DNA of 64,000 nucleotides, taken from a virus. The translations under genes and the position numbers were made by a program. Shown piece by piece: positions 10,267-61,551 of the stretch; within the stretch, counting starts at the first letter, position 1; each line of letters begins with the position of its first letter. The DNA is taken from positions 1 to 64,000 of the IMG/VR virus record IMGVR_UViG_3300031088_000737. One strand, 5' to 3'. Under the pieces are notes generated by a model that made no database searches, was not told where the DNA came from, and saw nothing but the letters and a program-made list of their open reading frames with translations.

Positions 10267-10968
10267 TCAAGTATGACACATGTCTAATATTTGAATGTAT
10301 TGTTTAATATTAACTGCAGGCTCATTTAATAAATCAAGCATTAATGTATTACCAGTAATTTCTTTAAATTCTATGGGATTATTTTCCATGTAATATGTTA
10401 ATTTTAGTTTGTTAATAAGGTATTCTTGGTCAATGTTTACATCAAATCGAAAGCATTTGTCGCTGTCTAAAATAGATGTTTCATAGCCTTCAAAATGGTT
10501 TAACTCAACCAAGACTGAAGTAGCTCTCACTATTTTATGATTTAATTTTTCTAATGATATTAATCGGTTCTCTTTGGCACTTGTGTGCATGATGATTTCC
10601 CATTTTTCTTCTATATTAGTATCATTTAGGTTTATTTCTCTGGAATATCGAGTAACTATACTGTTGAAAACTCTATTTTGATCAAGTTTGATTCCAAATT
10701 TTAATGACATGACATCAGTGTAGTTATTATAGTTGATTTCGCAGCTACCTACTCTGGTATTTAGAACATCAATAAACGCTATTGGAAGTCGTTTTAAACT
10801 GTAAAAATCACTGGTATAATTCATCCAAAATGATTTGTCTAAAAATTTATCATCCCATCTTATGTCAATCTTTACATCAGTTTTGTTAATATTTAAGATT
10901 TCTATGCAGTCAGTAGCAAAATAAAGGATGTCTTCTTTTGTAAACACTTCTTTTTTTTGAATATTCAT
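10267..10968 (-). CDS. hypothetical protein with C-terminal M-x-x-Phi tag
   Basis: ends YIQILDMCHT. Confidence 0.75.
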   Translation of the reverse strand: MNIQKKEVFTKEDILYFATDCIEILNINKTDVKIDIRWDDKFLDKSFWMNYTSDFYSLKRLPIAFIDVLNTRVGSCEINYNNYTDVMSLKFGIKLDQNRVFNSIVTRYSREINLNDTNIEEKWEIIMHTSAKENRLISLEKLNHKIVRATSVLVELNHFEGYETSILDSDKCFRFDVNIDQEYLINKLKLTYYMENNPIEFKEITGNTLMLDLLNEPAVNIKQYIQILDMCHT

Positions 10969-10970
10969 TG

Positions 10971-11612
10971 TTAAATCTCACACATGTTGATCACATCAAG
11001 ATTAGATTGATAATTAGGACTGTTTAAAGCTTCAATAAAATCAGTTGTCCCAAATAAGTCAATAAAGAAATCTTGTTGTGTAAAGGCTATATAACTTAAC
11101 TCTAAACGATTAAAGTATAACGCTTGATTAGCTTCATGTTCTTTACGTTGCAATCGTGCATTAAGATTTGTTATTTTAAGCTCTTCTCCATAATTTAACA
11201 CATCAATATCATAAGCATGAACGCAACCTTCGTCTTGAACAATTTTATAGCTAATATTTAAATCAGCAGAGTTTTCTATTGTGTGATAAGTCCATTCTTC
11301 ATACATCGGGGACAAATCTTTCGATGATTTCGATCTCATTGTATAAGTATGTGGTATTCTTAAATAACCTACACCGCTTTTTAATACAAGTGTAGTGATG
11401 TAGTTTTTTATTTTATTCCCGTTTTTTGTAATTTGGATTCTGCCCACAGTTTTATCATCACATTTAATATGAAAAATACCCGATGATTGTCTACCAATGA
11501 TAATGTGACCAGATTTAATCATTTTAGTCGCCTTGTTGGCATATTCAAATAAAGAAACAGCTTTCTGTTTTGAAAGGACGTTCCCAGTATTTTTAAACTC
11601 AATTGTAATCAT
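10971..11612 (-). CDS. hypothetical protein with C-terminal M-x-x-Phi tag
   Basis: ends NLDVINMCEI; co-oriented with neighbours at 2- and 17-bp gaps. Confidence 0.75.
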   Translation of the reverse strand: MITIEFKNTGNVLSKQKAVSLFEYANKATKMIKSGHIIIGRQSSGIFHIKCDDKTVGRIQITKNGNKIKNYITTLVLKSGVGYLRIPHTYTMRSKSSKDLSPMYEEWTYHTIENSADLNISYKIVQDEGCVHAYDIDVLNYGEELKITNLNARLQRKEHEANQALYFNRLELSYIAFTQQDFFIDLFGTTDFIEALNSPNYQSNLDVINMCEI

Positions 11613-11629
11613 TCTTAGTCTCCAAATGC

Positions 11630-12286
11630 TTAATATTTCAAAGCTTCTAAAATAGTCAATCGTTTTTCAATTTCATCACTCGTTAATGGTTTCAGCATTG
11701 GGCCTTCGACATCATCAAACATTTCACTGAATGATTCTGGCTGTTTAAACTGGTGATAGCTGTATCGAGCCAACAAGTTTTCTTCTTCTATGGATAAAAG
11801 TTGTTGACCTGTTTTTTCAATAACTTTGTGGCTTTCTTGAGTGTAACCATAATACATGTAGGTGATTTTTTCTAAATTGTTAGATTTATCTAAATATCCC
11901 ACAATTTGGATGCAGTAAGCATAAGGTTCACGTTCATTTCTTTTATCTTGAACAACAGTGAATTGAGATTTAAGATCTAACTTATCATCCATATACCAGT
12001 GAACAATTTTGTTAATTTTTGGGAATAACAAAAAATTTCCATGAATATCATCAGCCGAGAGTTGTACTTCAGTTTCATACCCTGATTCAGTGGTTTCTGA
12101 TTTACAATGATTGTTGACGGTCACTCGACCTTGAGACTTACCATTGATTCTGTAATAACTCGTTTCATGGTTCTTTTCAGTAAAGGAAATTTGATCACGA
12201 GTCACTGTCACATTGATGGCTTTTTGAAGAGCGATAATAGTGTCTAATAGTTTATCCAAAGGAATGTCATCTAGCTCGGTAATCAT
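11630..12286 (-). CDS. hypothetical protein with variant C-terminal tag
   Basis: ends RLTILEALKY (Ala in place of Met). Confidence 0.75.
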   Translation of the reverse strand: MITELDDIPLDKLLDTIIALQKAINVTVTRDQISFTEKNHETSYYRINGKSQGRVTVNNHCKSETTESGYETEVQLSADDIHGNFLLFPKINKIVHWYMDDKLDLKSQFTVVQDKRNEREPYAYCIQIVGYLDKSNNLEKITYMYYGYTQESHKVIEKTGQQLLSIEEENLLARYSYHQFKQPESFSEMFDDVEGPMLKPLTSDEIEKRLTILEALKY

Positions 12287-12345
12287 TATTAAATCCTTAA
12301 ATTAAGGTCGTATTATACACAATAATACTCATCTTATCAAGATAT

Positions 12346-12738
12346 TTAAGGTTTAAATTTTGTGTGAGGTTTTACTTCTAATTTAAGTTCTGGTTTGAGT
12401 TCTGAAACTTCTGCTACTATTATTTCATTGAGGCCAAACCATTTGAAGGCGACAATACGATGACGACCCTCCATGATGAAGTTGTTAGGATCATCTTTAC
12501 CTACATAGATAGGTTGAGGCATTTCGCCATTGTTGAGTTTATCTAATATTTTTTGTGTGCGTTTTTTTTCGAGAGGAAACTCTTTATAGGAGTCTTCCAT
12601 TTCATTGATTTGCTTTTCAAACAAACTGATACTGATTTTCTTTATTTTTACGTCAACGTGGCTCACACTTTCAACATTCAGCCAAAGTGCTATGGATTCT
12701 AAGTCTTTTTCAAATAGTGCTTTGTCTAGAAATTCCAT
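12346..12738 (-). CDS. ParB/sulfiredoxin-like N-terminal domain protein
   Basis: PQPIYV...FIMEGRHRIVA (ParBc GxHR motif); basic tail HTKFKP. Confidence 0.7.
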   Translation of the reverse strand: MEFLDKALFEKDLESIALWLNVESVSHVDVKIKKISISLFEKQINEMEDSYKEFPLEKKRTQKILDKLNNGEMPQPIYVGKDDPNNFIMEGRHRIVAFKWFGLNEIIVAEVSELKPELKLEVKPHTKFKP

Positions 12739-12880
12739 AATGCCTCCATTTTAACCTCATATTATCATGAAATATTAAAGTATTCAATTGCCAATGTAAA
12801 AGATAATTATTTGCATTTTTATTTTGAGGTTGATCTATTTAAAATATTCGCTATATTGAAGAAAACAATTAATTTAAACC

Positions 12881-13096: not shown

Positions 13097-13109
13097 CCAG
13101 ACTATGCCA

Positions 13110-13594: not shown

Positions 13595-14407
13595 ATGGCT
13601 ATGTTTTTTGATGAAGAACAAATTAAAAATTTAGATTTTGGTACTTTTCCAAGTGGAGTAGATTTTTATTCAAAAGGGTATAAACTACTGTTCAAAAAAC
13701 CAGCCCCATCGACAGCAAGAATAACTGTAGGATATATTGACTATCCTTTTGATAGTACAGAATTCATTTTTAAAGAACTATGGTCAACTGAAGAGTTATT
13801 TCGAGTTCCGGTTTTAAAAAACAACTTTAATATTTATTATGAAAAGCATGATTATATTAAAACCATGACATTGGCATTTCCTGATATAGATAAAATTTGT
13901 TCAATCATGAATTTCCATTTTGAACAATTACTTCATTTTAAAGTGATAAATCCTAACAGAATGAAAACATTCAAGACACAAGATGATATTATGAAATATT
14001 GTAACACGTTTAATTTTCCTGTTGTTAACTCATTTACATGGGAAAAACATAAAGGGGCTGAAATCACTATTAACAATGCAAGCAATATGTGTTTATACCC
14101 GACTGTCAACAATAAATTTATGATTGCGTTATCTCTTCGATTACCCATTAAGAAAAATACAATGTTAAAACTCTTCGTATTACCTCAAGAAAATGGTAGT
14201 TATCTCTATGGGATGAGAGACATTACATCATTGAGAAAAAATCAATTATTTGTGTTAAATGATATGACTGAGTTGTTTAAATACATGAAAAGCGTTATTT
14301 TCGAAAATACACACTATACTAAAAAAATAAGAGATGTTTTGGGCACCTTTACAATTGACGACTACAATGAAGATAACTTGAAGGTTTATGAGATGTCAAA
14401 GTATTAA
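13595..14407 (+). CDS. hypothetical protein with C-terminal M-x-x-Phi tag
   Basis: ends NLKVYEMSKY; AGAGG SD. Confidence 0.75.
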   Translation: MAMFFDEEQIKNLDFGTFPSGVDFYSKGYKLLFKKPAPSTARITVGYIDYPFDSTEFIFKELWSTEELFRVPVLKNNFNIYYEKHDYIKTMTLAFPDIDKICSIMNFHFEQLLHFKVINPNRMKTFKTQDDIMKYCNTFNFPVVNSFTWEKHKGAEITINNASNMCLYPTVNNKFMIALSLRLPIKKNTMLKLFVLPQENGSYLYGMRDITSLRKNQLFVLNDMTELFKYMKSVIFENTHYTKKIRDVLGTFTIDDYNEDNLKVYEMSKY

Positions 14408-14467: not shown

Positions 14468-14980
14468 ATGAGTCTAACCAATCGAAACCCAGCTACTTAT
14501 CAAAAATACGATGAAGTCATCAATTGCGTGCTTAAATCGCTTGCTCTCGTTCGGACGGGTGGTAAGTTTACACCTATTTCTTATCGAGACTTTGACGCTA
14601 AACATTCACTTAAATCTATGCACCTTCGGGTGATGCGAGTTGATTCTATTCCAACAGGAACGATGGCAATGGAATCAATGGTGATGGAGATCCTTTCTTT
14701 CAAAGATGATGTTGTTAAAAATTCAAAATACTTTTCAATTAAATTTAACCAAATTACCAACACCGTTGGTTTTAAAATGAATAAAGAATATGACCGCAAT
14801 TTTGATCAGTGTGGTTTTGTTTATCAAAATGATGATATGGAAGAAATCAAAAAGCATATTGATAAAGTCATGTACAATTTAGTGATAAAAGAAAAACTTT
14901 TTTCTTTGACTGGCGAACATGTTGATTTTGATGAAGTTACTGACCGTCATTATACATTATTGAATATGATTTTCATCTAA
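14468..14980 (+). CDS. hypothetical protein with C-terminal M-x-x-Phi tag
   Basis: ends HYTLLNMIFI. Confidence 0.75.
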   Translation: MSLTNRNPATYQKYDEVINCVLKSLALVRTGGKFTPISYRDFDAKHSLKSMHLRVMRVDSIPTGTMAMESMVMEILSFKDDVVKNSKYFSIKFNQITNTVGFKMNKEYDRNFDQCGFVYQNDDMEEIKKHIDKVMYNLVIKEKLFSLTGEHVDFDEVTDRHYTLLNMIFI

Positions 14981-18134: not shown

Positions 18135-19943
18135 ATGCATTTTAAAGAAAATGAAGCAGTTAAAGACAGTTTAAACATCATCGAAAATCATTTTAAAGAA
18201 GTGGCTAAACGTGACATTACTCAAGAAATGCTCTTGGGATTTACGAAAGATACGCCTAACTTTGTTATCAACAAAGGGTATGCTTCCCAAATAAAGTCAG
18301 ATTTCACCAGTGTTGTGACAGCGTATGAAACATTTAAAGAAAAATTTAATGAATCCACCTCAAATCCAGAACTTGCGGATATCGTAGAAGCAGTCTCACG
18401 GGCTTATTTTACACTGGATGACACAGGTGGTGTTATTGATAAACGTATTGTGAATGGTCAGATGTCTGTTTATAAAGAATGGGTTGATTTTGCGAAAGAG
18501 AATGGTGTAGATTCTCAGGAAAACTTTGATCAGTTCAAAGAAACACTCACCAATTGTTCTGTCTTTATTAAGAAAGCGAGTTTAATTGTTAAAGACTTAT
18601 CAAAGACTATTAAGGAGATTAAAGAAAGTAAAGCTAATGCACCGTATGTTCGTGGATTAATACAAGACTTTATGGAAACCTTTCAGGATAAAGTGGGATC
18701 TCAAAATAGTTTCTTCATGGAGATCAATAAAAACGTTAGTCTTTATGAAAATGTTTTGTATAAAATGACTATTGATATTGACACAATGAAAGATGCCATA
18801 AAAAAACAAACACCAGAAGTCATGAAAACAATGGCAAACAAATTTTGTGACTCCCAAGTTGAGACAGACAATGATATTTCTAGTTTCTTAAAATCAAAAG
18901 ATTTTGATCACTTAATTGAAACAAGAGTTCAATTAAAAGGGCAATCAAAACCAGACAATATTCTATTTATAGATGGCTCTTACGCTTATGTTGATAATGG
19001 ACAATATAGACATACTCTTACTGAATATGACTTCTTTGAATCTCGTACAGAGTTACATGAATCCGCGATTGCTCACTTATCTAGAAAGAAACCAAAAGTC
19101 GCCACCTTTTTTAAACGCTTTATTGAAGACAGTGAATCAGCAGTGGATATTATTCCAGTCTTAGACACCTATCAACAATACAGTGATGTAGTGGCTCGTG
19201 CAGGTATTAATGTGTTGCAGATGACTAATAAATCAATGGAAGCTGTAGATGACAGTATCAACGAAGTTGTCTTGGAGCACAAAACTAATCAATACATAAA
19301 TAGCATACTGAGTAATAAATACCAACACCTTTTAACACCAGAATCTCGTGGCATGTTAAAAATTATTTATGATGCAGGCGTTAATAAACAATCTTTGCAA
19401 AATTATGTTGGTAAAAAGATTGCAGCGTTAAAAACACCAGAAGAGTTTTTAGAATACGTGACCAAAGTAAAAGACCATTTTTCTGGTTTTACTTACAATG
19501 CATTAAGTTCAAAACTAGAAGGGAATGGTATTACGCCTTGTTATGATAAAGATGGTGTTGTTATTTTCAATGTCGAGAACTTTGCTCTGTCTAAAAAATT
19601 AGGCTCACCGTCTTGGTGTATTTCACGTACATCTAATTACTTTGAAGACTATACTGAAAATGGAGCACGTCAGTATTTCATGTATGACTTTAATGAAAAA
19701 GAAACAAGCAATAATTCAATGATTGGATTTACGATAAAAAAAGATGGATCAATATTGGCTAGCCATTTGAAAAATGATGATGATTTTACATTTTTGACGA
19801 ATTATAGTGCATTACATTTAGAAGTATTAAAAAATGATTTCAATCAATTTAAACTTAATGACGAATACTCAAAAATAATGAAAGAAAAATATAATCTAGG
19901 CGACTATAAAGAGAAACCTAAAAAAACAGGATTAAAAATATGA
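18135..19943 (+). CDS. hypothetical protein, LGSPSWC family, paralogue of 37207-38970
   Basis: shares EHKTNQY..SILSNK..HLLTP, GKK.AA.KT, LGSPSWCI.R, QYFMYDF, IGFT with 37207-38970; tail KKTGLKI. Confidence 0.8.
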   Translation: MHFKENEAVKDSLNIIENHFKEVAKRDITQEMLLGFTKDTPNFVINKGYASQIKSDFTSVVTAYETFKEKFNESTSNPELADIVEAVSRAYFTLDDTGGVIDKRIVNGQMSVYKEWVDFAKENGVDSQENFDQFKETLTNCSVFIKKASLIVKDLSKTIKEIKESKANAPYVRGLIQDFMETFQDKVGSQNSFFMEINKNVSLYENVLYKMTIDIDTMKDAIKKQTPEVMKTMANKFCDSQVETDNDISSFLKSKDFDHLIETRVQLKGQSKPDNILFIDGSYAYVDNGQYRHTLTEYDFFESRTELHESAIAHLSRKKPKVATFFKRFIEDSESAVDIIPVLDTYQQYSDVVARAGINVLQMTNKSMEAVDDSINEVVLEHKTNQYINSILSNKYQHLLTPESRGMLKIIYDAGVNKQSLQNYVGKKIAALKTPEEFLEYVTKVKDHFSGFTYNALSSKLEGNGITPCYDKDGVVIFNVENFALSKKLGSPSWCISRTSNYFEDYTENGARQYFMYDFNEKETSNNSMIGFTIKKDGSILASHLKNDDDFTFLTNYSALHLEVLKNDFNQFKLNDEYSKIMKEKYNLGDYKEKPKKTGLKI

Positions 19944-26779: not shown

Positions 26780-28024
26780 ATGAACACTACACTTTCTCCC
26801 AATGCTATTGTCAACGAACTTTCTGGCCTGTTAACAGGGGATGAGATTGTTCCCTATATCGATCATAAAGTTAGACAATTTTGTGAAAGCATTGATTTGC
26901 CTATTTATTCAAGAGATGAGTATAAAGATAATAACGATATAACAGGTCTTTTTTTTGATGATTTGCATAAAGACAGAAACTGTTTTTTTTATGATTTGAC
27001 TAATCAATCTGTTGACAGTGTTATTGCTTTAATTGAGTTTATTATTGGTAAAAAAATCAATAATTTTCGTCAATATGTTTCTGCAGTTAATTTCTATTCT
27101 GATCTTCACTATGGATCATCTGACAAAGATAAAACTGATTTATCTGTATCCATTAGAAATGAGAACGGTTATGTAAAACTTTCGGTGTATGATGAGAAAA
27201 CTGAACGACCTATTTCAATTCTTTTAAAAATAGATAATGGTATTCTTTATTTGGAGTCATATGGTTATTATTTTAAATTAGAACTGGTTAATTGGGATTT
27301 ATTTAATAGCCTTTTTGATCGCTTTATAAATACGTGTCATCAGCGTAAAATTCAAGAAGTTTCAACCGTCATTGGACGGTCAGATGTGACATCAAACTAC
27401 ATTTTAAACAGAAATAAAATGTCAATTTTTGATTGTATACAAGAGACTACAAAACAATTAAACGTTAAAGATATTGTGGATCTTTGCGATGAATTTAAAT
27501 TCAGTGAAAAAGTCATTTTAAATGGTAGTGGACAGCAATGTTATAAGACTTATGACTATAAAAATATCTTAATGTTAACTGATACTATTTTAAATGAACG
27601 CGATGCATTTTTTATTAGACAAGTCATTAGTTTTAGTCATTTTAGATACACACTTTCTAATGGTAAAAAATTGGTATATCGATTTAGTTTTAAAAATCCA
27701 TCTAAATATAAACTAAAATATTCTTATCTGTATAATTTATCTATATTTGAAGACAACATTGGACCTATGGATGGAGCTATAGGTGATATTTCAATCGACA
27801 TTGGAGATTTTGAGAATTCAACCTTACTTTTGGGATTTTTCCAAGCAAAAGAAATGGGATTAACCATGCCTAGAAAACATCGTGATGAAGAACCCGATAT
27901 GTTTTTTAAATTGATGAAAGATTCATTTAAAATTGAAATTGCTGAAAAATTAGAAATGTCGTCAATTGATTTAAAAACAGAGCATTATATCTTATATGAA
28001 ATGATGAATTTCATGGGGATTTAA
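26780..28024 (+). CDS. hypothetical protein with extended C-terminal tag
   Basis: ends HYILYEMMNF-MGI (tag plus 3 residues). Confidence 0.75.
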   Translation: MNTTLSPNAIVNELSGLLTGDEIVPYIDHKVRQFCESIDLPIYSRDEYKDNNDITGLFFDDLHKDRNCFFYDLTNQSVDSVIALIEFIIGKKINNFRQYVSAVNFYSDLHYGSSDKDKTDLSVSIRNENGYVKLSVYDEKTERPISILLKIDNGILYLESYGYYFKLELVNWDLFNSLFDRFINTCHQRKIQEVSTVIGRSDVTSNYILNRNKMSIFDCIQETTKQLNVKDIVDLCDEFKFSEKVILNGSGQQCYKTYDYKNILMLTDTILNERDAFFIRQVISFSHFRYTLSNGKKLVYRFSFKNPSKYKLKYSYLYNLSIFEDNIGPMDGAIGDISIDIGDFENSTLLLGFFQAKEMGLTMPRKHRDEEPDMFFKLMKDSFKIEIAEKLEMSSIDLKTEHYILYEMMNFMGI

Positions 28025-28073: not shown

Positions 28074-28847
28074 TTATATCGAATACATAATCAATAGTTT
28101 TAATTTTTCATCCATATCATCTCCAAGAGAAACTAACTGCCGACCTAATTCATTTGTTGGGTCGATATTTTTCATAACATTTTTTTCAATAAAATTTTTA
28201 AATATAATATCTAAATCCTTATCAAAATCAAAAATATCGTTTTCTTCAAAGAAATCTTCATAATACATAGGATATGACTTAACGAAATAAATAGATTGTT
28301 TTTCAATGTTAAATGCTATATCAAATTGAAAGTCTATATCTTTACCAGCAAAGAAAGATAACACAGGAACGGCTATTATTTCTCTTTTTTTTGTCATTTT
28401 GAATTGGTAATTAAGGTAAAATAAATATTTTTTATTGTCAATTCTGCAAATTGATGTCGATGAATTTGATAAATTGTGTATTAGTTTCAAACTTTCCCCA
28501 GACCCAGATATTTCATACATTTTCTTTTGATCAAAATATGAAAAAGGTTTCATTATTTTTCTAAAATAACCCCCTTCATAAAAAGACTTCATGAAATTAT
28601 TGATCAATGACATTCTGTTATTATCAGGCAATATAATATTGGTTACTTTCTTAGTGTCTTCAAAATCATTATATTTAGATTGTAAGGCTTCTATAAAATT
28701 GTTCTTAACAAAAAATGAAAATTTAAGACCTTGTTGTTCTATACCTACTTGAAATCCATTTTTCATGTATGCAACTTCGAAAATAGAGATATCAGAATCA
28801 GGGAAATATTTATCTAATGCGTCTTCTAGCAGTGTCCGATTATTCAT
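28074..28847 (-). CDS. hypothetical protein with C-terminal M-x-x-Phi tag
   Basis: ends KLKLLIMYSI. Confidence 0.75.
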   Translation of the reverse strand: MNNRTLLEDALDKYFPDSDISIFEVAYMKNGFQVGIEQQGLKFSFFVKNNFIEALQSKYNDFEDTKKVTNIILPDNNRMSLINNFMKSFYEGGYFRKIMKPFSYFDQKKMYEISGSGESLKLIHNLSNSSTSICRIDNKKYLFYLNYQFKMTKKREIIAVPVLSFFAGKDIDFQFDIAFNIEKQSIYFVKSYPMYYEDFFEENDIFDFDKDLDIIFKNFIEKNVMKNIDPTNELGRQLVSLGDDMDEKLKLLIMYSI

Positions 28848-29113: not shown

Positions 29114-29488
29114 ATGACTACTAAACCTGTAAAAATCACCAAGAAAATGCTAGCAGAAATGGAAACTGTTTATTATGCTTATCTTGTAAAAAGAACAGCA
29201 GATTATGTTCTATCCAAAAATCCAACTTATCGTTTTGAAATTAAGAGAACCAATATTCAAAATAGAATGCCATTAAGTAAGCTTACTAATACAGGATTAA
29301 AGAAAGCCTTGAAAGATTCTCCTTATTCTTTTAAAGTCACTCGAAATAAATATCCAACGCCACACATTGAAAGAGGTTTTCTTAAAATGATCAATGATGT
29401 CAATGAAATCATGATTGAACAAGGTCGATTTTTAGAACAAGAGATTACAGATGATGATTTCCTTCTTGTTGAAATGATGAAATTCTAA
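29114..29488 (+). CDS. small basic protein with C-terminal M-x-x-Phi tag
   Basis: ends DFLLVEMMKF; GAGG SD; terminator at 29490-29512. Confidence 0.75.
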   Translation: MTTKPVKITKKMLAEMETVYYAYLVKRTADYVLSKNPTYRFEIKRTNIQNRMPLSKLTNTGLKKALKDSPYSFKVTRNKYPTPHIERGFLKMINDVNEIMIEQGRFLEQEITDDDFLLVEMMKF

Positions 29489-35592: not shown

Positions 35593-37116
35593 ATGAGTAA
35601 TTTTGACATTGCCAAGAAAGACGCTGCACGTCTATTAAAAATAGCTAAAGAAAACCTATCCGGTGATATGCCGACCATTCCTATCAAAAATCTAAGTCAA
35701 GCTAAAGAATATATTGCTAAAATAAAAGGATACAAAACATGGTTTGAATATGAACGTGAATTAAAAACACAAGATGCTCAATACATTAATTTTCATAAAA
35801 ATGAAAAATTAGCCGAAATTAAACGTGTTCTTGAAAACATTGATGACCTCACGAAACAAATACCTTTTAAATTTATCCCATCTGATCGTATAGTCGATGA
35901 GTTTAAATACTTTGAGAAAAAAGAAAGACAATCGTATGTCATAGCTAAAGAAATACAGGATAAAACATTTTTTTCTTCGCCTGAAAAACCTTGGAACATT
36001 AGTCAATATCCGCTTTATATCAGTGGTTCTACAGGATCGGGAAGTGATGAAAGTATATTTTCATTGTTGAATAATTATGTGAATAACCAAGAAGGGGCTA
36101 TCATCCTCAATGGTGATGGTGGTCATTCAAGCTTCTGGAAATTATATTCATCCGTTACTCATGCCAAACGAAATGATGACTTTTATATCTTAAATTTTAT
36201 GAGTAGAGATGAAAGTGCATCTAATACCATTGATCCGATTAACGATATCATCGGTGATGAAGCACTCTTTATGATATTGTTTGGTCAAAAAATGGGAGCA
36301 TTGATTAATTCTCTATGTGAATGTATTAAAAATGCAGATGGTTTAGTGTCCTTTGACAATTTAGAATCCTTTTTAAATTTAGACAACTTAAAACTTTTTT
36401 TAACCGATGATTTATTCAAATCTGCATGGTTGCAAATTGAAAGCTACCTTGCTGAGTTAGTAGACTTCGATGAGCGTAAAGCGATTAAAAAACATGTTAT
36501 CAATTGCATGCAAGCTCGAAAAACTGTTGATGTTATACTCAATCATCCTTTTGTTTTTTCTATTCAGCCACAAGTGAAAATGGATAAAGTGTTTTATCAA
36601 CGTAAACTATTGAATATTATGTTTCCATCTTTAGAGAAATCCCCAGATTACTGCTCTAATTTAGTTGCTTTGATTGTGGGAAATATTGAACATGTTGCTC
36701 GCAAATTTAAAGGTGTTCAAAACATTCAAAATATTATTTATAAAGAAATAGATTATTCTACATCTCATCAGTTAGTCGATTATATTTTCAAAGAAACAAA
36801 TCATGAGGCTATCAATTATATTTATAAATTTTATGGTCACTGGCAGCGATCATTGATGATTCCTAAATGTGTTGCTGAATCAAAAACATTTGCATTGATG
36901 AAAGAATATGATGAATACCCAGATGCTTTAAAGATAAAAATTTTTGACTATATGGTGGATAAGAAAGGAATATTTAGTAAAAAAGCCTTAAAAGATCTTG
37001 ATTGTGGTGAGGCATTTATATTCAGTACACTGCATCGACCAGTCTGTAAAGTTAAAATGATATATACGAAAATAGAAAGTGTTCATAGCTCTCAGTTAAA
37101 TAGAAAAAAAATGTAA
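35593..37116 (+). CDS. degenerate DotL/IcmO-like type IVB coupling protein with an N-terminal Glyoxalase_8-like helical domain
   Basis: YISGSTGSGSDE, RNDDFYILNFMS, SNTIDPI and RKLLNIMFPSLEKSPDYCSNL align with DotL/TrbC blocks; Walker A lysine lost; N-terminal AKKDAARL...LSQAKEYIAKIKGYKTW. Confidence 0.7.
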   Translation: MSNFDIAKKDAARLLKIAKENLSGDMPTIPIKNLSQAKEYIAKIKGYKTWFEYERELKTQDAQYINFHKNEKLAEIKRVLENIDDLTKQIPFKFIPSDRIVDEFKYFEKKERQSYVIAKEIQDKTFFSSPEKPWNISQYPLYISGSTGSGSDESIFSLLNNYVNNQEGAIILNGDGGHSSFWKLYSSVTHAKRNDDFYILNFMSRDESASNTIDPINDIIGDEALFMILFGQKMGALINSLCECIKNADGLVSFDNLESFLNLDNLKLFLTDDLFKSAWLQIESYLAELVDFDERKAIKKHVINCMQARKTVDVILNHPFVFSIQPQVKMDKVFYQRKLLNIMFPSLEKSPDYCSNLVALIVGNIEHVARKFKGVQNIQNIIYKEIDYSTSHQLVDYIFKETNHEAINYIYKFYGHWQRSLMIPKCVAESKTFALMKEYDEYPDALKIKIFDYMVDKKGIFSKKALKDLDCGEAFIFSTLHRPVCKVKMIYTKIESVHSSQLNRKKM

Positions 37117-38970: not shown

Positions 38971-38971
38971 T

Positions 38972-42040: not shown

Positions 42041-42136
42041 ATAAATCTCCTAAAATAAGTATCGTCTATATTATCATCTTTATCTTGAAATTACAATAAA
42101 ATAATGATAGTCTATTGTGAGAAAAATGGAGAAATC

Positions 42137-42877
42137 ATGAATATTCAATTGATTTTAGATAAAACTAAGTTTACCGATTTAGAGAAAATAAAAGTAGGTG
42201 CATTTATTACACCACTGACTAATAACATGAGTATCGTGTCGATTGAATATTCAGACTTAGATAAATATGAAATGATTAGCATCCATTTACATGACATTGT
42301 TTATTATTTTGGAAAGTCAGAAGTTGGACAAGTCTTAACATTGACATCATTTGAACGTTCAAAAGAAACTTATACAGAATACCAATTTTTTAGTAGTTTT
42401 ATCCCTACGATTGTTTACAAATTTAAGGAAGGTAAATCATTAGGCATGGGTAATGGAAGAAAAGAACGAAAACGAACCACTTTATACAATACTGCGTATG
42501 TTGATCCCATGATCAAAGTCGATATCGGTTATGCGGGTGGATCTGAAAAGCCAAAACAGATTACTGTTTATGTTCAAAAAAACGATTTGGTCAAGGTCAA
42601 CAAAGGTTTCACATTGGATCTCGTTAACTATTATTTTACGATTGACATGAAAACAAAAGAAGTTTTAGAAACACACTCGCATGGTGCAAAACGTTACAAC
42701 ATGTTATTTTCTGATAAACAATTTAAAAATCATACAAAATATAAATACTCAACAGAACTGGCAGAAAATTTTCTCGGATGTTTTAGCTCTTTGAATGATG
42801 TTCAAGATGTTTATTCAACGATAGGAAGGGAAGGGATACAGAATTTTGTTTACCTCAGTAAAATGATTTTAATTTAA
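42137..42877 (+). CDS. hypothetical protein with C-terminal M-x-x-Phi tag
   Basis: GGAG SD favours start 42137 (track 42104); ends FVYLSKMILI. Confidence 0.7.
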   Translation: MNIQLILDKTKFTDLEKIKVGAFITPLTNNMSIVSIEYSDLDKYEMISIHLHDIVYYFGKSEVGQVLTLTSFERSKETYTEYQFFSSFIPTIVYKFKEGKSLGMGNGRKERKRTTLYNTAYVDPMIKVDIGYAGGSEKPKQITVYVQKNDLVKVNKGFTLDLVNYYFTIDMKTKEVLETHSHGAKRYNMLFSDKQFKNHTKYKYSTELAENFLGCFSSLNDVQDVYSTIGREGIQNFVYLSKMILI

Positions 42878-44000: not shown

Positions 44001-44957
44001 TTAATACTCATACATGCGATACACTTCAAAATCTTTCTCTGTTAAATTGTTGGCGTCTAATCCAAATTCATTGAACAAACTATCAATACTTTCAGCATTA
44101 AATATCTTATTTTGTTTAAAATAATCCAAAGAATATTTAGACAGTAATTCATTCAATGAAAATTCTTTATCTGTCCCGGCTACTCTGATTGTATTTTGAC
44201 CAGTTTTTAATACATAAATATATTGACCAAGACAATTAGCTAAAAAGCCGGTGCAATTGTTGGAAAAGTCTGCAATCAAAAACCATTCATCGTAGCTAAT
44301 ACGTTTTGAAACAAAATACGGCGTTTTTACTAATTTTTGTTTTAATACCATATGTTCGTCAATAAAGTCAACGCCTTTATTTTTATGAATTTCTCTCAAT
44401 TGTCCATTATACAGATGATAGAGATCTGGTTCTCCTGCTTTATCAGCCGCGTAACATTTGTAGACCGGACTATCTCGATCATTATTTACACTGAAATCCA
44501 TCGTTGATTTAATAAAATGATAGTAATTCTTTACACCATTTTTTGACAACACTTTGAAATCCTTTCTGGTTGCATAGATAAATGGGCAGCTATTAACAAT
44601 TTCAACAATGTGGCGGCTAGCATGCTCCAACTTATTTTTTTTACTGGCAGTATCTACTTCTTCCATATAGGTTTTCATATCATCGGTTGGTTTTGGGGTC
44701 ATTTTGAGATTGAATTCATAGACCAGCTTCTTGAAAAAATAGCCGAAATAAAACGCAACATGAAATTGTTGATGTTCGGGTTGAAACTGAATTTTTAGTT
44801 TAAGTTTTCCGCTCACAATTATTGTAAACATGCAATTTTTTTTATCGTAAGCTAAATTGTTTGCTTGATAATGATAAGGGATATCATCTCGATGTTTATT
44901 TGATTCTTGAGAACGTGTGTGCATTCTTAATTGATTGTAATGTTCCCAATAATTCAT
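44001..44957 (-). CDS. hypothetical protein with C-terminal M-x-x-Phi tag
   Basis: ends DFEVYRMYEY. Confidence 0.75.
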   Translation of the reverse strand: MNYWEHYNQLRMHTRSQESNKHRDDIPYHYQANNLAYDKKNCMFTIIVSGKLKLKIQFQPEHQQFHVAFYFGYFFKKLVYEFNLKMTPKPTDDMKTYMEEVDTASKKNKLEHASRHIVEIVNSCPFIYATRKDFKVLSKNGVKNYYHFIKSTMDFSVNNDRDSPVYKCYAADKAGEPDLYHLYNGQLREIHKNKGVDFIDEHMVLKQKLVKTPYFVSKRISYDEWFLIADFSNNCTGFLANCLGQYIYVLKTGQNTIRVAGTDKEFSLNELLSKYSLDYFKQNKIFNAESIDSLFNEFGLDANNLTEKDFEVYRMYEY

Positions 44958-48168: not shown

Positions 48169-48852
48169 ATGATTGTAAATGAAATTTATGAACCTGATGA
48201 ACCTGAAATGATTGAGCACATGGACATTTTTCGTGAGGCTCTGTTACCTTACATGTCGGAGGATGCGATTGTTAATATTGAATACATTGGTAATCGTTAT
48301 GATGTCGATATCTCAGAAGGTCGTTTCGCTGGAGTTAGTTTTCTAGGTTATTATTACAATGATTATATCAGCATTGAATTGAAAAGTAAGCAAGCATTTT
48401 ATAAACTATTTGAGCTTTTTCCACAATCTACACCTATTGATTATGAGACTTTAAATAAAAACTTAACTCGTTTTAAATTTTTATATGCGTTTGCTTTTGG
48501 ACGTAATCTTAATATAAAATCCATTAAAAATGAGGATGATTTGCTGAATCATCATACCTATGATGGCCCTAATTATTATCATCTTATAAAAGAACCTGAC
48601 ATGGAAAATTCCAGATTTTCAGTGGGTATGGGTATCGGTATTGATACTCAACCCATTTTGTTGAATAATCATATTTCTTACAATTATTCCACTGAAAAAG
48701 ATTTTTCAAAAGATAAAAATGCTATTCGTAAAAGACACTATAAAGAGTTTGAGGATGCTTTTATTGAGAGATTTATCACAAATCGACTGGGTATTTCAAA
48801 AGCTGATGTGACGTTGGCACATTATAAAATCTTGCGAATGGTAAATATTTAA
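48169..48852 (+). CDS. hypothetical protein with C-terminal tag, paralogue of 50945-51649
   Basis: YISIELKS..F..LFELFP...IDYE.LN..L..FKFLYAF; ends HYKILRMVNI. Confidence 0.75.
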   Translation: MIVNEIYEPDEPEMIEHMDIFREALLPYMSEDAIVNIEYIGNRYDVDISEGRFAGVSFLGYYYNDYISIELKSKQAFYKLFELFPQSTPIDYETLNKNLTRFKFLYAFAFGRNLNIKSIKNEDDLLNHHTYDGPNYYHLIKEPDMENSRFSVGMGIGIDTQPILLNNHISYNYSTEKDFSKDKNAIRKRHYKEFEDAFIERFITNRLGISKADVTLAHYKILRMVNI

Positions 48853-50944: not shown

Positions 50945-51649
50945 ATGGAATATGACGAAGCAGCAATAATGAAAATGATTGAAGAATCTGACATTAAAAC
51001 GAAGGACGTAATGAAAATAATAAAACCAGTATTTGAAAAAATAGTTAATTTAACTCATTCATCTGATTTTCATTCAAATGAATATGAATTTGTTTTAAGT
51101 TATGATATACCTGAAAAACCTTTTTATGGTTCTTATTTCATGGGAACCTATAACAAAGATACCAATTATATTGATATTGAAATTAAATCAGAAAATGGAT
51201 TTAATCAGTTTTTTGAGATTTTCCCATCAGCACCCAAAATAGATTTTGAACACCTTAATCATGTTATTCATGAATTTCGTTTAATGTATGCTTTTATGTT
51301 GGGTGAAGATGTTGTATTCACTGTTAATTCAATGGAAGATGTTAAAGACCATTTCTACTGGTGTGGGAACAACTATCGTTTTTCAGTAAGATTATTTGAT
51401 GAGCATATTCATGACGATAATCATTTTGTTATTAACATATTTTATGGAATTTGTACGGAAACCTGCCAGATGACGCAGACGTATAAGTATGATTTTAAAC
51501 ACCCGAAAATTGGTTTCTCTTGTGAACGATGGGATTCAATTGATGAAATCAAAACAGAGTTCTTTAAATATGTCGCTAAAATGTTAAATAAACCTGTCAG
51601 TGAGATAACATTAATGGATTATAAACTATTGCCTATGTTGAATGTTTAA
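50945..51649 (+). CDS. hypothetical protein with C-terminal tag, paralogue of 48169-48852
   Basis: YIDIEIKS..F..FFEIFP...IDFE.LN; ends DYKLLPMLNV. Confidence 0.75.
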   Translation: MEYDEAAIMKMIEESDIKTKDVMKIIKPVFEKIVNLTHSSDFHSNEYEFVLSYDIPEKPFYGSYFMGTYNKDTNYIDIEIKSENGFNQFFEIFPSAPKIDFEHLNHVIHEFRLMYAFMLGEDVVFTVNSMEDVKDHFYWCGNNYRFSVRLFDEHIHDDNHFVINIFYGICTETCQMTQTYKYDFKHPKIGFSCERWDSIDEIKTEFFKYVAKMLNKPVSEITLMDYKLLPMLNV

Positions 51650-52360: not shown

Positions 52361-52963
52361 ATGAAGACATTTGACAGCGATAAGTTCCTTAATACTTTTC
52401 AAGCGTATTTTGATTTAAAGGTCGAGAAAGGCCGCACCACTTATTACTATGGTAAAAAAGATCTCACGATTTATTACAATACTGAAAACTATCTGACATC
52501 CAACGATCTTCGTATTATGGTTATGGATTTTAAATACACTGAGCAAATTGAAAATCTTTCGTTGTTTGTTCGTATTCCTTTGGACAATGGTTTTAATAAA
52601 GCGAATGGGATGACAATTAACAGTGGTGTTATTAAAAATCATATTAAAAAAGCAAAAGATTACCTCCCAATCTTTAAACAAATTACAAAAGCATCTTATA
52701 ATGGAAAGCCTTACTTGCTGATTAAATGTAATGTTGATCAAGTGCATGATGAACGTGGAATTCTTCGTCATAAAATTAGCAATGTGAGCTATCAGTTTGA
52801 AATTTCTTTTAACGTCAAAGAAAATGGTCAATCGGATAGTTGCACTGACTATATTAGTTATGTGGATCGCCATCTTGATGATTATTTCTCTAAAACAGAT
52901 GTCGATGTGAGTGGAGCAGACTACAAGCGTAAATTAGACCTTTATAGCATGATTGTAATTTGA
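52361..52963 (+). CDS. hypothetical protein with C-terminal tag
   Basis: tandem paralogue of 52964; ends KLDLYSMIVI. Confidence 0.75.
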   Translation: MKTFDSDKFLNTFQAYFDLKVEKGRTTYYYGKKDLTIYYNTENYLTSNDLRIMVMDFKYTEQIENLSLFVRIPLDNGFNKANGMTINSGVIKNHIKKAKDYLPIFKQITKASYNGKPYLLIKCNVDQVHDERGILRHKISNVSYQFEISFNVKENGQSDSCTDYISYVDRHLDDYFSKTDVDVSGADYKRKLDLYSMIVI

Positions 52964-53548
52964 ATGAAAAAAATTAATTTTGATATTTTTTCCAAAAGCT
53001 TTCAAGACTATTTTGGATTTAATATGAGCATCGGCACTGCAAAACATTATGATGGTCCAGATAGATTAATCGTTATCTATGAATATAATCCATCATTTTT
53101 AAGAAGAACTGGTTTTACGATTAAAGAAAATAATGGTTTATTGAAAGTTTATGCAGAAATACCAATGGACTACACATTCAATAAAAACAATCCGTTAATT
53201 TTAAACGGTCAAGAAGTCCAAGAAAAAATTGATGAAGCTATTCACTATTTTTCTGTCTTTCGTAAAATAGTTGATGTGGATGAATACTATAAACCTTATT
53301 TGAATATTAATTTCATTATTGATGAAGTGACAGAAGGTGACGAAATTGTTAAATATAATATATCAACTGTCACTTATAACTTTGAAATGACGTATAACAG
53401 TAAAGTAAATGGACGAGAGGACAATTCTAAAAACTTTTTGGTAGTGGTTCAGGACTATCTTGATAAATATTTCCAAAAGAATGACATTGATGTTACAGGA
53501 TCGAGTTATAAAGAAAAAATTGACTTATATAACATGATGGAGATTTAA
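52964..53548 (+). CDS. hypothetical protein with C-terminal tag
   Basis: ends KIDLYNMMEI; shares YF.K.D.DV.G..YK.K.DLY.M with 52361. Confidence 0.75.
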   Translation: MKKINFDIFSKSFQDYFGFNMSIGTAKHYDGPDRLIVIYEYNPSFLRRTGFTIKENNGLLKVYAEIPMDYTFNKNNPLILNGQEVQEKIDEAIHYFSVFRKIVDVDEYYKPYLNINFIIDEVTEGDEIVKYNISTVTYNFEMTYNSKVNGREDNSKNFLVVVQDYLDKYFQKNDIDVTGSSYKEKIDLYNMMEI

Positions 53549-53549: not shown

Positions 53550-54392
53550 ATGCAGTATCAACCCACAATGATTACTTCATTTGACGAAAATGAAGTGGCA
53601 GTAAGTCGTATCTTTAAATTTATTAAAGCTTTTGCTGCACAAACATTATTAGTAGATTGCTTTTCGTTAAGTGTCAGAAAAGATGATCCTACTCCAGATA
53701 AGGCGAAAATTAATAAAAATAATTGGAAAAATACAAATACTTTTAAGTCATCTGCTATTACTGTTTACAATTATTCATTTAATATAAAAAAAACAACGGT
53801 TAAAAAAATGTCATTTTTTTACAAGAAATATAATGACTACAATAAATCTATTCAGGGACAAGTTTATTATCAAGATGGTAATATTTTAAGAATTGTTGTT
53901 TCTTTTTATGGCGAGAAAGATGAGTTGCTTAATTTTATAAAATATCATCCAGAAAGTTATTTTATGATTGATCGCTATTATAGACTGTCATTGGCGGCAA
54001 TGCATGATGTGCATCCTAAAAACAAATCAATTTCAGGTCGTATAGAATGTTCCTATAAGATTAAACAGGAACAATGTAAGCTAGAATATGTTTTGAGTGA
54101 TGAAAAAACGAGTCAAATTACTAATTCGCAAGGTTTTACAATAGTGCAAGGTCTTACATCACAAGGTTCAGCCATTTCACTATCAAATCTTTTGTCAGCA
54201 TTTGTTGGTAATCGTACTAATAGTTACAGTAAATTTATGATACGTTTTGAGAATGAACATTTTCAATCATTAACTTCAACTAGATTGGTTGAATTACAAA
54301 AATGTTTTGTAGATTTCCCAATATTAAGTGATTTGATTAGATCTGATAATTTTGACGACTATGTTTTAGTCTTAGAAATGGAACAAATTTAA
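53550..54392 (+). CDS. hypothetical protein with C-terminal tag
   Basis: ends YVLVLEMEQI. Confidence 0.75.
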   Translation: MQYQPTMITSFDENEVAVSRIFKFIKAFAAQTLLVDCFSLSVRKDDPTPDKAKINKNNWKNTNTFKSSAITVYNYSFNIKKTTVKKMSFFYKKYNDYNKSIQGQVYYQDGNILRIVVSFYGEKDELLNFIKYHPESYFMIDRYYRLSLAAMHDVHPKNKSISGRIECSYKIKQEQCKLEYVLSDEKTSQITNSQGFTIVQGLTSQGSAISLSNLLSAFVGNRTNSYSKFMIRFENEHFQSLTSTRLVELQKCFVDFPILSDLIRSDNFDDYVLVLEMEQI

Positions 54393-56310: not shown

Positions 56311-56316
56311 GAAAAT

Positions 56317-58083: not shown

Positions 58084-58087
58084 AATA

Positions 58088-58795: not shown

Positions 58796-58903
58796 AAAAA
58801 CTCCCATTTTAATAAGTTAAAAATAGGATAGATCTAAAATAAATAAAGTCAATAGCATAAAATCAAATAAATGCTTAAAAAAAGCCTAAATTTAAAATAT
58901 TTT

Positions 58904-59332
58904 TTAACCCCAACTAAAATAATCAAACTGTAATTGATTGTTTTCATCTAATCGGGCTTCACTGTCCAAAAATTCTTCAAAATTATAATATTGAATGTCT
59001 ACTGAGTCTGTTTCTGGATCACCGGGATAAATAATGGTACCATAACTGCCATCGTTAATAGGACGTGTATCTATAACAAGTCGATCATTTACGCTGTTTG
59101 TATACACAACAACTAATTTTGAGCGTATTTCTGGTGTGCTGTCATCAATATCAATGTTGAAGTCATTGCCGTCTCCTAATTCTTCTAATGTCAACCATTT
59201 ACCAGAACATTTGTCATCTGAATGTTCAACACCTTCAAATCGTTTGATAAATTTTACATAAGAGATAGGCAACTTAATTCCTAATCTTTTTTCAGCTATC
59301 TTTACACGTTTGGCAAATGTTAACTTTTCCAT
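58904..59332 (-). CDS. SMI1/KNR4 (SUKH) family protein
   Basis: VKIAEKRLGIKLPISYVKFIKRFEG N-terminal signature. Confidence 0.75.
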   Translation of the reverse strand: MEKLTFAKRVKIAEKRLGIKLPISYVKFIKRFEGVEHSDDKCSGKWLTLEELGDGNDFNIDIDDSTPEIRSKLVVVYTNSVNDRLVIDTRPINDGSYGTIIYPGDPETDSVDIQYYNFEEFLDSEARLDENNQLQFDYFSWG

Positions 59333-59469
59333 ATTGAACTCCTAGTCTTTCAAATAGATTATCATTAAAAATATTGATTGCCATTTTGAACTAAAAGTGT
59401 TACTATAATGTTTAAAATTTTGATATTGTCTCATTATGAGGTTAAATCAATATCTAGGAGCGAATTCAT

Positions 59470-60531
59470 ATGTTGAGTTTAATTAAAGATAAAAGTGAAG
59501 ATATTTATTTAAAAGAAACATTAACGACAGTTTTAGATAACTTAGGTGTAAGTCATCAAGAAATTGCTAATCTCTTATGCTCAGTTGATGATAAAATTGA
59601 ATATCTTGAAAACATAAACTTATTTAAGTTTAATAACAAAGAAATAGTATTTGATTTTGGTATTGAGATTAATAAAAAAATTACATCATCATCTATCATG
59701 ATTTATTTGAATAATTCCTTAGAATTTAAAACAATTGAAATACATTTTTTGATTGATACTAATGAACTTATTATTGTCTACTATAACAACAATTTTGAAT
59801 TTATTAATTTCAAACATAAAGATTTTAAAATGAATGAAAAAAGAGAATTGCTTATAATTGCAGCAGAACAAAAGAAAAAAATTGCAATGGAGGAAGAAAA
59901 GAATAAAGAAGAAAACGAAAAAAAATTACAAAACGATTTAGTTGTTAAACGCACTGCTGATAATCGTAAAATTATTAAATCATTACAAGAAAAATTGCAT
60001 CTTTTTCAATATGATGTAAGAGATTTTGATTATATTTGCAATAAATTTTTGTTAACTAATGTTCAATATGATAATTGGAAAATAGACAGTGATAGAACCT
60101 TCATGTTATATGATAATACTAAGAAACTTTCAACTACAATTTTACGATCAGGCATTGTTCCTATTTCATCAAAATCATTTTGGGAAAAATGTGATATAGA
60201 ATTTGATGATAACCTGAATATTATTGGTGTTGAATTTAAAATAAAACAAATAACACTGGGTGATTATCATATTTATGTATTTAAACTTGATACTAATTTT
60301 AATATAAAAGATTTTTGCTTGATTGAAGTTATTAATAAAAAGATAAGATCATCAGATTATAGTTATAATAAATTCGTATTCAAAGATCTAGTTTCTATTT
60401 TAAAATTTAAATTGAGTGGGAACCCATATATTTATGAAGTTATCCCAGAAGTTATTGTTCCTTCGGCATACGATTTTAATTCAGAAGACTTTAAAAAACG
60501 ATTGTTAATTGCTGAAATGCTACTTGTTTGA
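59470..60531 (+). CDS. hypothetical protein with C-terminal tag, paralogue of 60562-61551
   Basis: ends PSAYDFNSEDFKKRLLIAEMLLV. Confidence 0.75.
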   Translation: MLSLIKDKSEDIYLKETLTTVLDNLGVSHQEIANLLCSVDDKIEYLENINLFKFNNKEIVFDFGIEINKKITSSSIMIYLNNSLEFKTIEIHFLIDTNELIIVYYNNNFEFINFKHKDFKMNEKRELLIIAAEQKKKIAMEEEKNKEENEKKLQNDLVVKRTADNRKIIKSLQEKLHLFQYDVRDFDYICNKFLLTNVQYDNWKIDSDRTFMLYDNTKKLSTTILRSGIVPISSKSFWEKCDIEFDDNLNIIGVEFKIKQITLGDYHIYVFKLDTNFNIKDFCLIEVINKKIRSSDYSYNKFVFKDLVSILKFKLSGNPYIYEVIPEVIVPSAYDFNSEDFKKRLLIAEMLLV

Positions 60532-60561
60532 TAATTAATTGATAACCATTGAGGATTTTTT

Positions 60562-61551
60562 ATGCTACAAAAAAAATATGACAATAAAGAAGAAAACCTT
60601 CAAATCATAAAGAATAGTTTAACCTATGTTTTGACCACATTAGGAGCATCTGAGTCTTTTATTGAAAGCTCGTTGAATGACATTATTTCTTCTGAATTAA
60701 GTTATTCTTTCGTTAATGATTTTATGAAGGTAGATTTTGGTGATGATGTTAATCAATCAGTTTCTTCATCTACTATTGTGACACACTTCAACGCATCAGC
60801 AGCCTTATATAAAGTCCATGTTGAATTTAGAGATGAAGTTAAAAAGTCAACAATGGTCATGATTTACAATGCTGATATGGATTTTGTTGATTATCAATTT
60901 AAAGAAGACATTCCTAGTCGCCATAGATATTATCAAAATTTATGTGATCTTGAATTTGAATTAAAACGCTCATTGATTTCACAGTTAAAAAGACTTCCAT
61001 CTGTATTTAAATGTGATGAAAACCTCCTTGATAAGTTTTTTAACCAAATCTATTTAACTAAACATCATGATTACCATTCAGTGGGCGAAAACACGAAAAA
61101 TATGAAATTCTCGTTATCGTATAGCTCTCAAAAGTTCGCAATAAAAACCAACATTTTTTCAATAAATGTTGATTACTTTAATCATTCAAAATTTGACATA
61201 ATTTGCGAAATAGAATTTGATACATTAACAAAAATAAAAGATATAACCTTTATCTTTCAATCAAAATCAGTAGATAGATATAAGATAACACAAGATATTA
61301 TTTCATTTGACTCTGATCTCAGTCTTTGGCGTTATCAGAAAAAATATTTTGCAGACAAGCATATAAAAATAGATCTCATTCCAACCAATGGTTTAAGCAA
61401 TGAAGACTTTTATTTTTTGCTTAATTTAAAATTTTGTCCACATCCTGAAATTCATGATATCTTACCTGAGCTGATGAATCCATCAGCTTATAACTTCAAT
61501 TCAATAGATTTTAAAAATAGGTTGAATACTGCAGAGATGTTATTGTTTTAA
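60562..61551 (+). CDS. hypothetical protein with C-terminal tag
   Basis: ends PSAYNFNSIDFKNRLNTAEMLLF; terminator at 61572-61600. Confidence 0.75.
   Translation: MLQKKYDNKEENLQIIKNSLTYVLTTLGASESFIESSLNDIISSELSYSFVNDFMKVDFGDDVNQSVSSSTIVTHFNASAALYKVHVEFRDEVKKSTMVMIYNADMDFVDYQFKEDIPSRHRYYQNLCDLEFELKRSLISQLKRLPSVFKCDENLLDKFFNQIYLTKHHDYHSVGENTKNMKFSLSYSSQKFAIKTNIFSINVDYFNHSKFDIICEIEFDTLTKIKDITFIFQSKSVDRYKITQDIISFDSDLSLWRYQKKYFADKHIKIDLIPTNGLSNEDFYFLLNLKFCPHPEIHDILPELMNPSAYNFNSIDFKNRLNTAEMLLF

Follow-up and report, generated by a model that had tools for sequence, protein, structure and literature searches.

A C-terminal tail with methionine four residues from the stop on about a fifth of the genes of a low-GC contig: a probable docking helix

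Why should proteins that look otherwise unrelated end in the same few residues? The question is raised by a stretch of 64,000 nucleotides, referred to here as the window, which makes up the opening 64 kb of one contig of 181,270 bp and about 31% GC, filed in IMG/VR as virus record IMGVR_UViG_3300031088_000737. Fifteen genes of the window encode proteins with methionine (Met) at position -4, counting the last residue as -1, within an acidic-hydrophobic tail of 14-16 residues that is called the tag in what follows. The tag is locked to the protein end, is conserved in distant relatives and sits on proteins with no detectable common ancestry, and it probably serves as a docking or address helix.

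A tail locked to the protein end

Open reading frames (ORFs) were called as the longest non-overlapping frames of at least 80 amino acids (aa), which gave 65 in the window. An earlier note, made from the sequence alone, had listed 15 ORFs with Met at -4, two variants and three pairs of paralogues; all of these are real, with one alternative start (42104 for 42137). Scores in the list refer to the position weight matrix (PWM) described below it.

10267..10968, minus strand: tagged ORF, 233 aa, ending ...DMCHT; the weakest member, with Thr at -1 and a PWM score of -2.4
10971..11612, minus strand: tagged ORF, 213 aa, ending ...NMCEI; no Pfam match
11630..12286, minus strand: variant tag, 218 aa, ending ...LEALKY, with Ala for Met at -4; PWM score 9.3
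13595..14407, plus strand: tagged ORF, 270 aa, ending ...EMSKY
14468..14980, plus strand: tagged ORF, 170 aa, ending ...NMIFI
26780..28024, plus strand: variant tag, 414 aa, in which three further residues come after a complete tag (...EMMNF)
28074..28847, minus strand: tagged ORF, 257 aa, ending ...IMYSI
29114..29488, plus strand: tagged ORF, 124 aa, ending ...EMMKF
42104..42877, plus strand: tagged ORF, 257 aa, ending ...KMILI
44001..44957, minus strand: tagged ORF, 318 aa, ending ...RMYEY; orthologues at 34% and 29% identity still have the tag, in one case with Ile for Met
48169..48852, plus strand: tagged ORF, 227 aa, ending ...RMVNI; paralogue of 50945
50945..51649, plus strand: tagged ORF, 234 aa, ending ...PMLNV; paralogue of 48169
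52361..52963, plus strand: tagged ORF, 200 aa, ending ...SMIVI; paralogue of 52964
52964..53548, plus strand: tagged ORF, 194 aa, ending ...NMMEI; paralogue of 52361
53550..54392, plus strand: tagged ORF, 280 aa, ending ...EMEQI
59470..60531, plus strand: tagged ORF, 353 aa, ending ...EMLLV; structure model with mean pLDDT 76 and a tag helix at 339-352
60562..61551, plus strand: tagged ORF, 329 aa, ending ...EMLLF; paralogue of 59470 at 26% identity

The internal Met frequency of 2.4% predicts 1.6 such ORFs in the window where 15 of 65 are found (binomial P 3.8e-11). On the whole contig the count is 45 of 191 against 4.6 expected (P 7.5e-31), and no C-terminal position other than -4 is enriched in Met. 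In two of the 45 (starts 101260 and 124070) the other features of the pattern are missing, and their Met at -4 is probably due to chance; the remaining 43 tails are convincing. Enrichment also holds at the level of families, counted by removing the last 30 aa of each protein and clustering the remainder by BLAST: 31 of the 161 families on the contig are tagged (P 5e-21), and iterative hidden Markov model (HMM) searches do not merge them. A 16-residue PWM anchored at the C-terminus, which the earlier note had proposed along with the background comparison, places 41 of the 191 termini above the 99.9th percentile of 49,780 internal windows, a level exceeded by 50 internal windows. Because the matrix picks out C-termini and not internal windows, the motif is tied to the protein end and is a feature of C-termini only.

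The pattern itself is regular. Hydrophobic residues occupy -9 in 37, -7 in 40, -6 in 42 and -1 in 41 of the 43 convincing tails, the last of these mostly Ile, and the corresponding counts for the tagged ORFs of the window are 15, 14, 14 and 14 of 15, in line with what had been read from the letters. Glu or Asp is usual at -5, Met at -4 is invariant, and Ile, Phe, Val or Tyr closes the chain. The cap residues at -11 to -15 are acidic or Thr, Ser or Asn, with Glu and Asp enriched at -15, -12, -11 and -5. The acidic character described earlier is also seen in the net charge of the last 20 aa, which is -1.7 in tagged and +0.8 in untagged proteins. Variants are few and take the form of Ala or Ile in place of Met, or of one to three appended residues.

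Is the signal carried by the DNA or by the protein? Synonymous positions of the codons within the tag vary, the genes end in any of the three stop codons and the DNA downstream is heterogeneous, and a DNA-level signal was therefore rejected as the cause. The tag is selected as protein and is under strong purifying selection. Conservation was measured as column identity in the last 16 residues and in the protein minus its last 40 residues. The tail scores 0.94 against 0.71 for the body in orthologue set A1, 0.94 against 0.66 in set A4 and 0.73 against 0.64 in set A6, and it is among the most conserved windows in all three. Orthologues of ORF 59470 that are 43-49% identical overall have 94% column identity in their last 16 residues, and the tag is retained in orthologues at 29-34% overall identity. 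It is as frequent in relatives as on the present contig: 11-14 of 22-24 ORFs are tagged in the syntenic loci L007, L009 and L010, and 6 of 18 and 7 of 19 in the distant relatives L096 and L102, where orthologues are 29-38% identical. Many tails of L102 close with Tyr, a residue that is rare at -1 on the present contig. One further protein of L102 (11921-13177, 418 aa) ends in an acidic tail like that of SSB (...DADDIPF), putatively a second kind of C-terminal docking tail in the lineage.

These results leave practically no room for an artefact, whether by chance, by paralogy of recent date or by a DNA signal that overlaps the stop codon. Some carriers are indeed tandem paralogues, but such an origin is refuted by the statistic at the level of families, the variable codons and downstream DNA, the absence of the motif from protein interiors and its persistence in distant relatives.

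Orphan carriers with a modular end

The carriers of the contig are 124-492 aa long (median 257), and their genes are often arranged in tandem. At E 1e-3 Pfam has no match for any of 42 tagged proteins, whereas 141 untagged proteins match 76 Pfam families at 1e-6, which bears out the earlier observation that no recognisable enzyme is tagged. The suggestion that the tail defines a client class stands to the extent that the tagged proteins form a class without recognisable enzymes. Pfam and PHROGs together return nothing for the carriers except one phrog_21276 domain, and a feature search of the ESM Atlas returns nothing. The tails alone are equally silent: 43 tails searched as 45-aa pieces against Pfam at E 5, and by profile against PDB sequences, give nothing consistent.

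Most carriers (39 of 43) have neither a signal peptide nor a membrane segment. Four-helix membrane proteins bear the tag too; for three of the four carriers with membrane segments, a flank rich in Lys and Arg follows the last helix, so that the positive-inside rule puts the tail in the cytoplasm. The tail is thus predicted to be exposed to the cytoplasm.

Upstream of the tail the families have nothing detectable in common, as had been noted for all but the paralogue pairs; BLAST, HMM and profile-profile comparisons agree on this. Similarity between families is limited to the last ~14 residues. Leave-family-out HMMs of the 40 residues before the tail show no cross-family signal (median rank 53 of 148, with matches that do not lie at the end), and hhalign gives the two best-sampled families a probability of 0.9%.

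Two further lines of evidence concern modularity. A tagged carrier of 492 aa (contig 165353-166831; L006:1353-2831) contains at residues 105-256 the phrog_21276 domain, which is 56% identical to a stand-alone, untagged protein of 169 aa from Stenotrophomonas phage RAS14. The domain also matches proteins of the Xanthomonas and Pseudomonas phages CM1, XacN1 and Xoo-sp13; in jumbo phages it is stand-alone and untagged. AlphaFold models of two families differ in architecture: ORF 59470 (predicted local distance difference test score, pLDDT, 76) is built of two beta domains and a 54-residue helix, and ORF 104413 (pLDDT 83, predicted template modelling score, pTM, 0.83) of an alpha/beta body and a long helix. 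Both models end in a helix, a short helix and the tag helix, with a pLDDT of about 82-87 in the tag, in keeping with the earlier prediction that the tail is helical. One full-length fold shared by all tagged proteins, which would have reduced the tag to the last helix of an expanded family, is not what these two families have. Because the phage domain is untagged elsewhere and the two models have different architectures, the tail is modular. Structural relatives of the two models were sought with Foldseek against PDB and BFVD, with VIA-align wide and in the ESM Atlas, and none was convincing; the best scores were Z 4.1 and 7.0, with template modelling scores (TM-scores) by model length of at most 0.29.

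A probable docking helix and its possible readers

What could a modular tail of this kind be for? It probably acts as a docking or address helix for one shared, putative reader, a reading to which we assign a probability of about 0.65. A C-terminus-anchored helix of 14-16 residues would hand a large, fast-evolving repertoire of cytoplasmic orphan proteins to that reader; the helix has an acidic N-cap, hydrophobes at -9, -7 and -6, usually Glu or Asp at -5, Met at -4 and Ile, Phe, Val or Tyr at -1. The tag belongs among short C-terminal docking and address peptides, in which company it is unusual for its sharp consensus and for its presence on about a fifth of the genes; a search of the literature found no description of a Met(-4) motif. 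The PRANC and F-box ankyrin families of poxviruses and giant viruses are fast-evolving and join a variable body to a short conserved C-terminal docking module. The carriers are like them in being a large, fast-evolving repertoire of variable bodies with a short conserved module at the C-terminus, but they have no ankyrin or F-box match, their tail spans only about 15 residues and their expression signals are bacterial. Neither whole carriers nor 45-aa tails match F-box or PRANC families in Pfam, even at E 5.

The identity of the reader is a more tentative matter. The tail may be a type IV translocation signal read by a DotL-type coupling machinery, in which case the carriers would be exported; this is a possibility at well below even odds. 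Under this proposal the replicon would be a megabase low-GC plasmid-like element whose tagged proteins leave the cell through a type IV system, for example into a recipient or target cell. The proposal is favoured because the layout of the tail is that of a type IVB signal (acidic block, hydrophobe near -4, strict C-terminal position), because a DotL homologue is present and because the replicon resembles conjugative megaplasmids. Dot/Icm signals consist of a hydrophobic residue at the extreme C-terminus and an E-block, and in one class of them a motif on a C-terminal helix is read by an adaptor (PMC7251119). Both kinds of signal lie at the extreme C-terminus of otherwise unrelated proteins without a Sec signal, and the acidic residues 10-17 from the end and hydrophobe near -3 or -4 of Dot/Icm have their counterparts in the Glu/Asp at -15, -12, -11 and -5 and the Met at -4 of the tag. 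A candidate reader is encoded within the window:

35593..37116, plus strand: homologue of DotL/IcmO (type IVB coupling protein), untagged, 507 aa; matches PDB 6sz9_A at E 7e-11

This ORF, called DotL-like in the earlier note, is a true though degenerate DotL homologue. It is 24% identical to Legionella DotL, and both the Walker A block and the 'LEKSPD' block align; the former is GSGSD here but GSGKT in DotL and in the consensus of the orthologues, including sequences 37-39% identical. A strongly conserved N-terminal helical domain replaces the membrane anchor. The gene is conserved in the lineage and has tagged genes around it in L096. Of the DotL-like relatives found in PLSDB, the closest is on plasmid pPL1 of Pseudomonas silesiensis (NZ_CP143488.1, L104; 31% identity); the plasmid was rejected as a relative of the element, being untagged and of 53% GC.

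Several observations weigh against export by a type IV route. The DotL homologue has no membrane anchor and in the present genome has lost the Walker A lysine, and no gene of a type IV apparatus besides it was seen in the ~220 kb examined. Plasmid pPL1 (1.17 Mb, 53% GC) has a DotL-like gene but no tags (1 of 46 ORFs). The effector-like enzymes of the contig (protein kinase, HipA/LepB_N protein, ART, lipase) are untagged, whereas Dot/Icm effectors with such enzyme domains do carry the signal. Known Dot/Icm signals are loose and compositional with no invariant residue, but the tag has a fixed register, and an invariant Met on a stereotyped helix is foreign to known type IV signals. A search of the E. 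coli genome collection for a sequence link to the pMEGA megaplasmids, described in the next section, gave no DNA match, and IMG/VR classes the contig as a provirus.

Could the reader instead be an unfoldase? The XB tail of SspB and ssrA tags are C-terminal peptides with a free carboxylate that are read by an AAA+ machine, ClpX or ClpA. By analogy, the variable body of a carrier would bind a target while the tail docks on the element's own ClpA-like machine, or the tail would be a degron and the carriers short-lived. The contig does encode a full-length ClpA-like double-AAA+ protein (121545-123842, minus strand; L003:17545-19842), about 40% identical to many proteobacterial ClpA and closer to none of them, hence taxonomically uninformative. 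The tail is confined to the free C-terminus, which ssrA-type tags likewise need, and the carriers are fast-evolving orphans in tandem arrays, as adaptors in an arms race would be. However, ClpP and ClpS have no match on the contig, ssrA and XB peptides are shorter and unstructured whereas the tag is a confidently predicted helix with several hydrophobic positions, and in the relatives L096 and L102 the tag was not seen together with ClpA. An unfoldase reader is unlikely. Improbable to a similar degree is the case without any reader, in which the tag would be the last helix of one ancient, hyper-divergent superfamily, kept for folding. The fairly confident helix that directly follows other C-terminal helices in both AlphaFold models, the similar size of the carriers and their frequent tandem arrangement would all suit such a superfamily. 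Against it stand the lack of upstream homology in every comparison made (BLAST, iterative HMM, leave-family-out HMM, hhalign), the different architectures of the two models, and the occurrence of the tag both in membrane proteins with four helices and in the 492-aa carrier, which is built around a phage domain found untagged elsewhere; moreover, nothing in a purely structural helix would require Met always at the same distance from the stop.

A DNA-bound or other hub is suggested by phage T4, in which the C-terminal tails of gp43, gp55 and gp33 dock on the gp45 sliding clamp and are interchangeable between proteins (PMC2988020). Those tails and the tag are of one kind, short hydrophobic and acidic peptides in which unrelated proteins of a single element end, but T4 has three clients where at least 40 are found here per 181 kb, the present clients have no known function, and no clamp gene was found on their contig. 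The tail of RB69 polymerase also has Met at -4. DNA_pol3_beta_3, the beta-clamp profile, has no match in the 181 kb (the gp45 family was outside the search), the carriers are orphans and not replication or transcription factors, and at least 40 clients, probably hundreds genome-wide, far exceed any known clamp toolbelt, which makes a clamp-style hub quite unlikely. A loading signal for a particle or compartment, such as a capsid or an encapsulin-like shell, would make sense if the replicon were viral. IMG/VR and CheckV call the contig a provirus (58% complete), phage-type accessory genes are present (RNA repair, tRNA arrays and phrog_21276, with R2K and T4 Y00F in relatives), and encapsulins and scaffold-coat binding provide known cases of cargo peptides at the C-terminus. 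This too is very unlikely, since no capsid or terminase match is found on the contig, no structural family is among the PHROG matches listed, and replicons of 1.3-1.9 Mb are above any known phage; the known capsid-targeting sequences of T-even phages are N-terminal.

To return to the proposed docking helix, known C-terminal address and docking peptides have either few clients, as in the T4 clamp tails, or a loose composition, as in Dot/Icm, whereas the consensus of the tag is sharp and locked in position, and about 20% of the genes have it in a class of megabase elements that is poorly understood. Dozens of orphan families otherwise unannotated thereby gain a property in common, a one-line rule picks out the client proteome of the element in any related genome, and the tail peptide offers a handle to fish out the reader; should the tag prove an export signal, it would be portable and of use for protein delivery. 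It is conceivable, if speculative, that a clade of AT-rich extrachromosomal elements of bacteria, megabases in size, runs a protein-sorting code of its own: the Met(-4) helix would label about one in five of the proteins, and a dedicated reader, perhaps a coupling ATPase derived from DotL, would deliver them in bulk to recipient or target cells or to a compartment. Such a signal for secretion or sorting, with its defined consensus, would be new, as would its client class of probably hundreds of fast-evolving proteins per genome.

The replicon behind the contig

The earlier note treated the element as a small replicon, and in this it needs correction. Genes from both ends of the contig have exact copies elsewhere: in one sample, on metagenome contigs of 283 kb and 1.28 Mb, and also on other contigs of more than 1 Mb. 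Near-identical genes occur on contigs of 1.3-1.9 Mb, and syntenic orthologues lie on contigs of 450 kb, 1.84, 1.85 and 1.92 Mb. Because exact copies and orthologues of its genes sit on megabase-size contigs, the present contig is a piece of a replicon of more than 1 Mb. The 10 kb past each contig end hold further orphan genes and no housekeeping genes. Within the ~220 kb of the replicon examined (about 10%), no ribosomal, cell-division, virion or core-metabolism genes were seen, and on the contig the profiles Terminase_6N, Phage_capsid and Gp23 have no match.

Expression signals on the contig are bacterial, because Shine-Dalgarno-like motifs and TTGACA/TATAAT promoters are frequent: GGAG-type motifs lie 4-20 nt before the start in 56% of ORFs against a background of 4%, and sigma-70 promoters of the form TTGACA-17-TATAAT are several-fold enriched. 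Promoter class does not separate tagged from untagged genes. A giant virus of eukaryotes, suggested by the aminoacyl-tRNA synthetase genes, RtcB, AsnB and the tRNA arrays, was rejected on the strength of these same motifs and promoters.

Two arrays account for 25 tRNA genes, among them eleven for tRNA-Leu and six for tRNA-Ala. The arrays lie beyond the window (contig 77614-79500 and 156104-158247), the tRNA-Leu genes span several anticodons, and two tRNA-like genes are aberrant. Genes for translation and RNA metabolism comprise an AspRS/AsnRS-type, a LeuRS-like and a ProRS-like protein, RtcB and a Pnkp-RNA ligase; an AsnB homologue is also present. The ProRS-like gene (window 62396-63526, plus strand) encodes only 376 aa and matches proline-tRNA ligase models in two stretches; at 356 bits against the 558-bit cut-off of the equivalog model PRK09194, it looks shortened or rearranged. 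Other genes of the contig encode GAPDH, thioredoxin reductase, DNA repair enzymes, Sir2, OmpA-like proteins and the ClpA-like protein, and the effector-like and enzyme genes comprise a protein kinase, a HipA/LepB_N protein, an ART-PolyVal protein and a lipase-like giant of 2309 aa.

Searches for relatives gave no match by megablast in phage and plasmid collections, none by pattern in IMG/VR, and no relative of any tagged family in GTDB species genomes. The closest parallel to the replicon, as distinct from the tag, is offered by the pMEGA megaplasmids of Enterobacteriaceae, which are of megabase size and low GC, lack rRNA, ribosomal protein and phage genes, and have many variant tRNAs (up to 208 tRNAs), conjugation genes of the Vir/Dot/Icm type and novel proteins encoded in multiple tandem copies (bioRxiv 10.1101/2025.09.30.679422); the term 'C-terminal' is absent from the main text of that preprint. 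Likenesses are the megabase size, the very low GC, the tRNA arrays, the lack of ribosomal and virion genes in ~220 kb and the tandem multi-copy novel proteins, with a DotL homologue here where pMEGA has Vir/Dot/Icm-type genes. Relatives of the present replicon differ in reaching 1.8-1.9 Mb, against at most 1.58 Mb for pMEGA. A megaplasmid of the pMEGA kind is one candidate identity for the replicon, an element of a class so far unrecognised another.

Large untagged proteins of the window have no useful match among phages, PDB or NCBIfam. A two-gene cassette occurs three times, at 18135-21490 and 37207-40600 of the window and 81688-84845 of the contig. One of its two proteins has about 600 aa and includes a block, GSPSWC, that is invariant; the other, translationally coupled to it, has 460-540 aa. 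The proteins of the cassette, which match nothing in Pfam, NCBIfam or PDB, show only a faint match to two uncultured phages of 635-642 kb.

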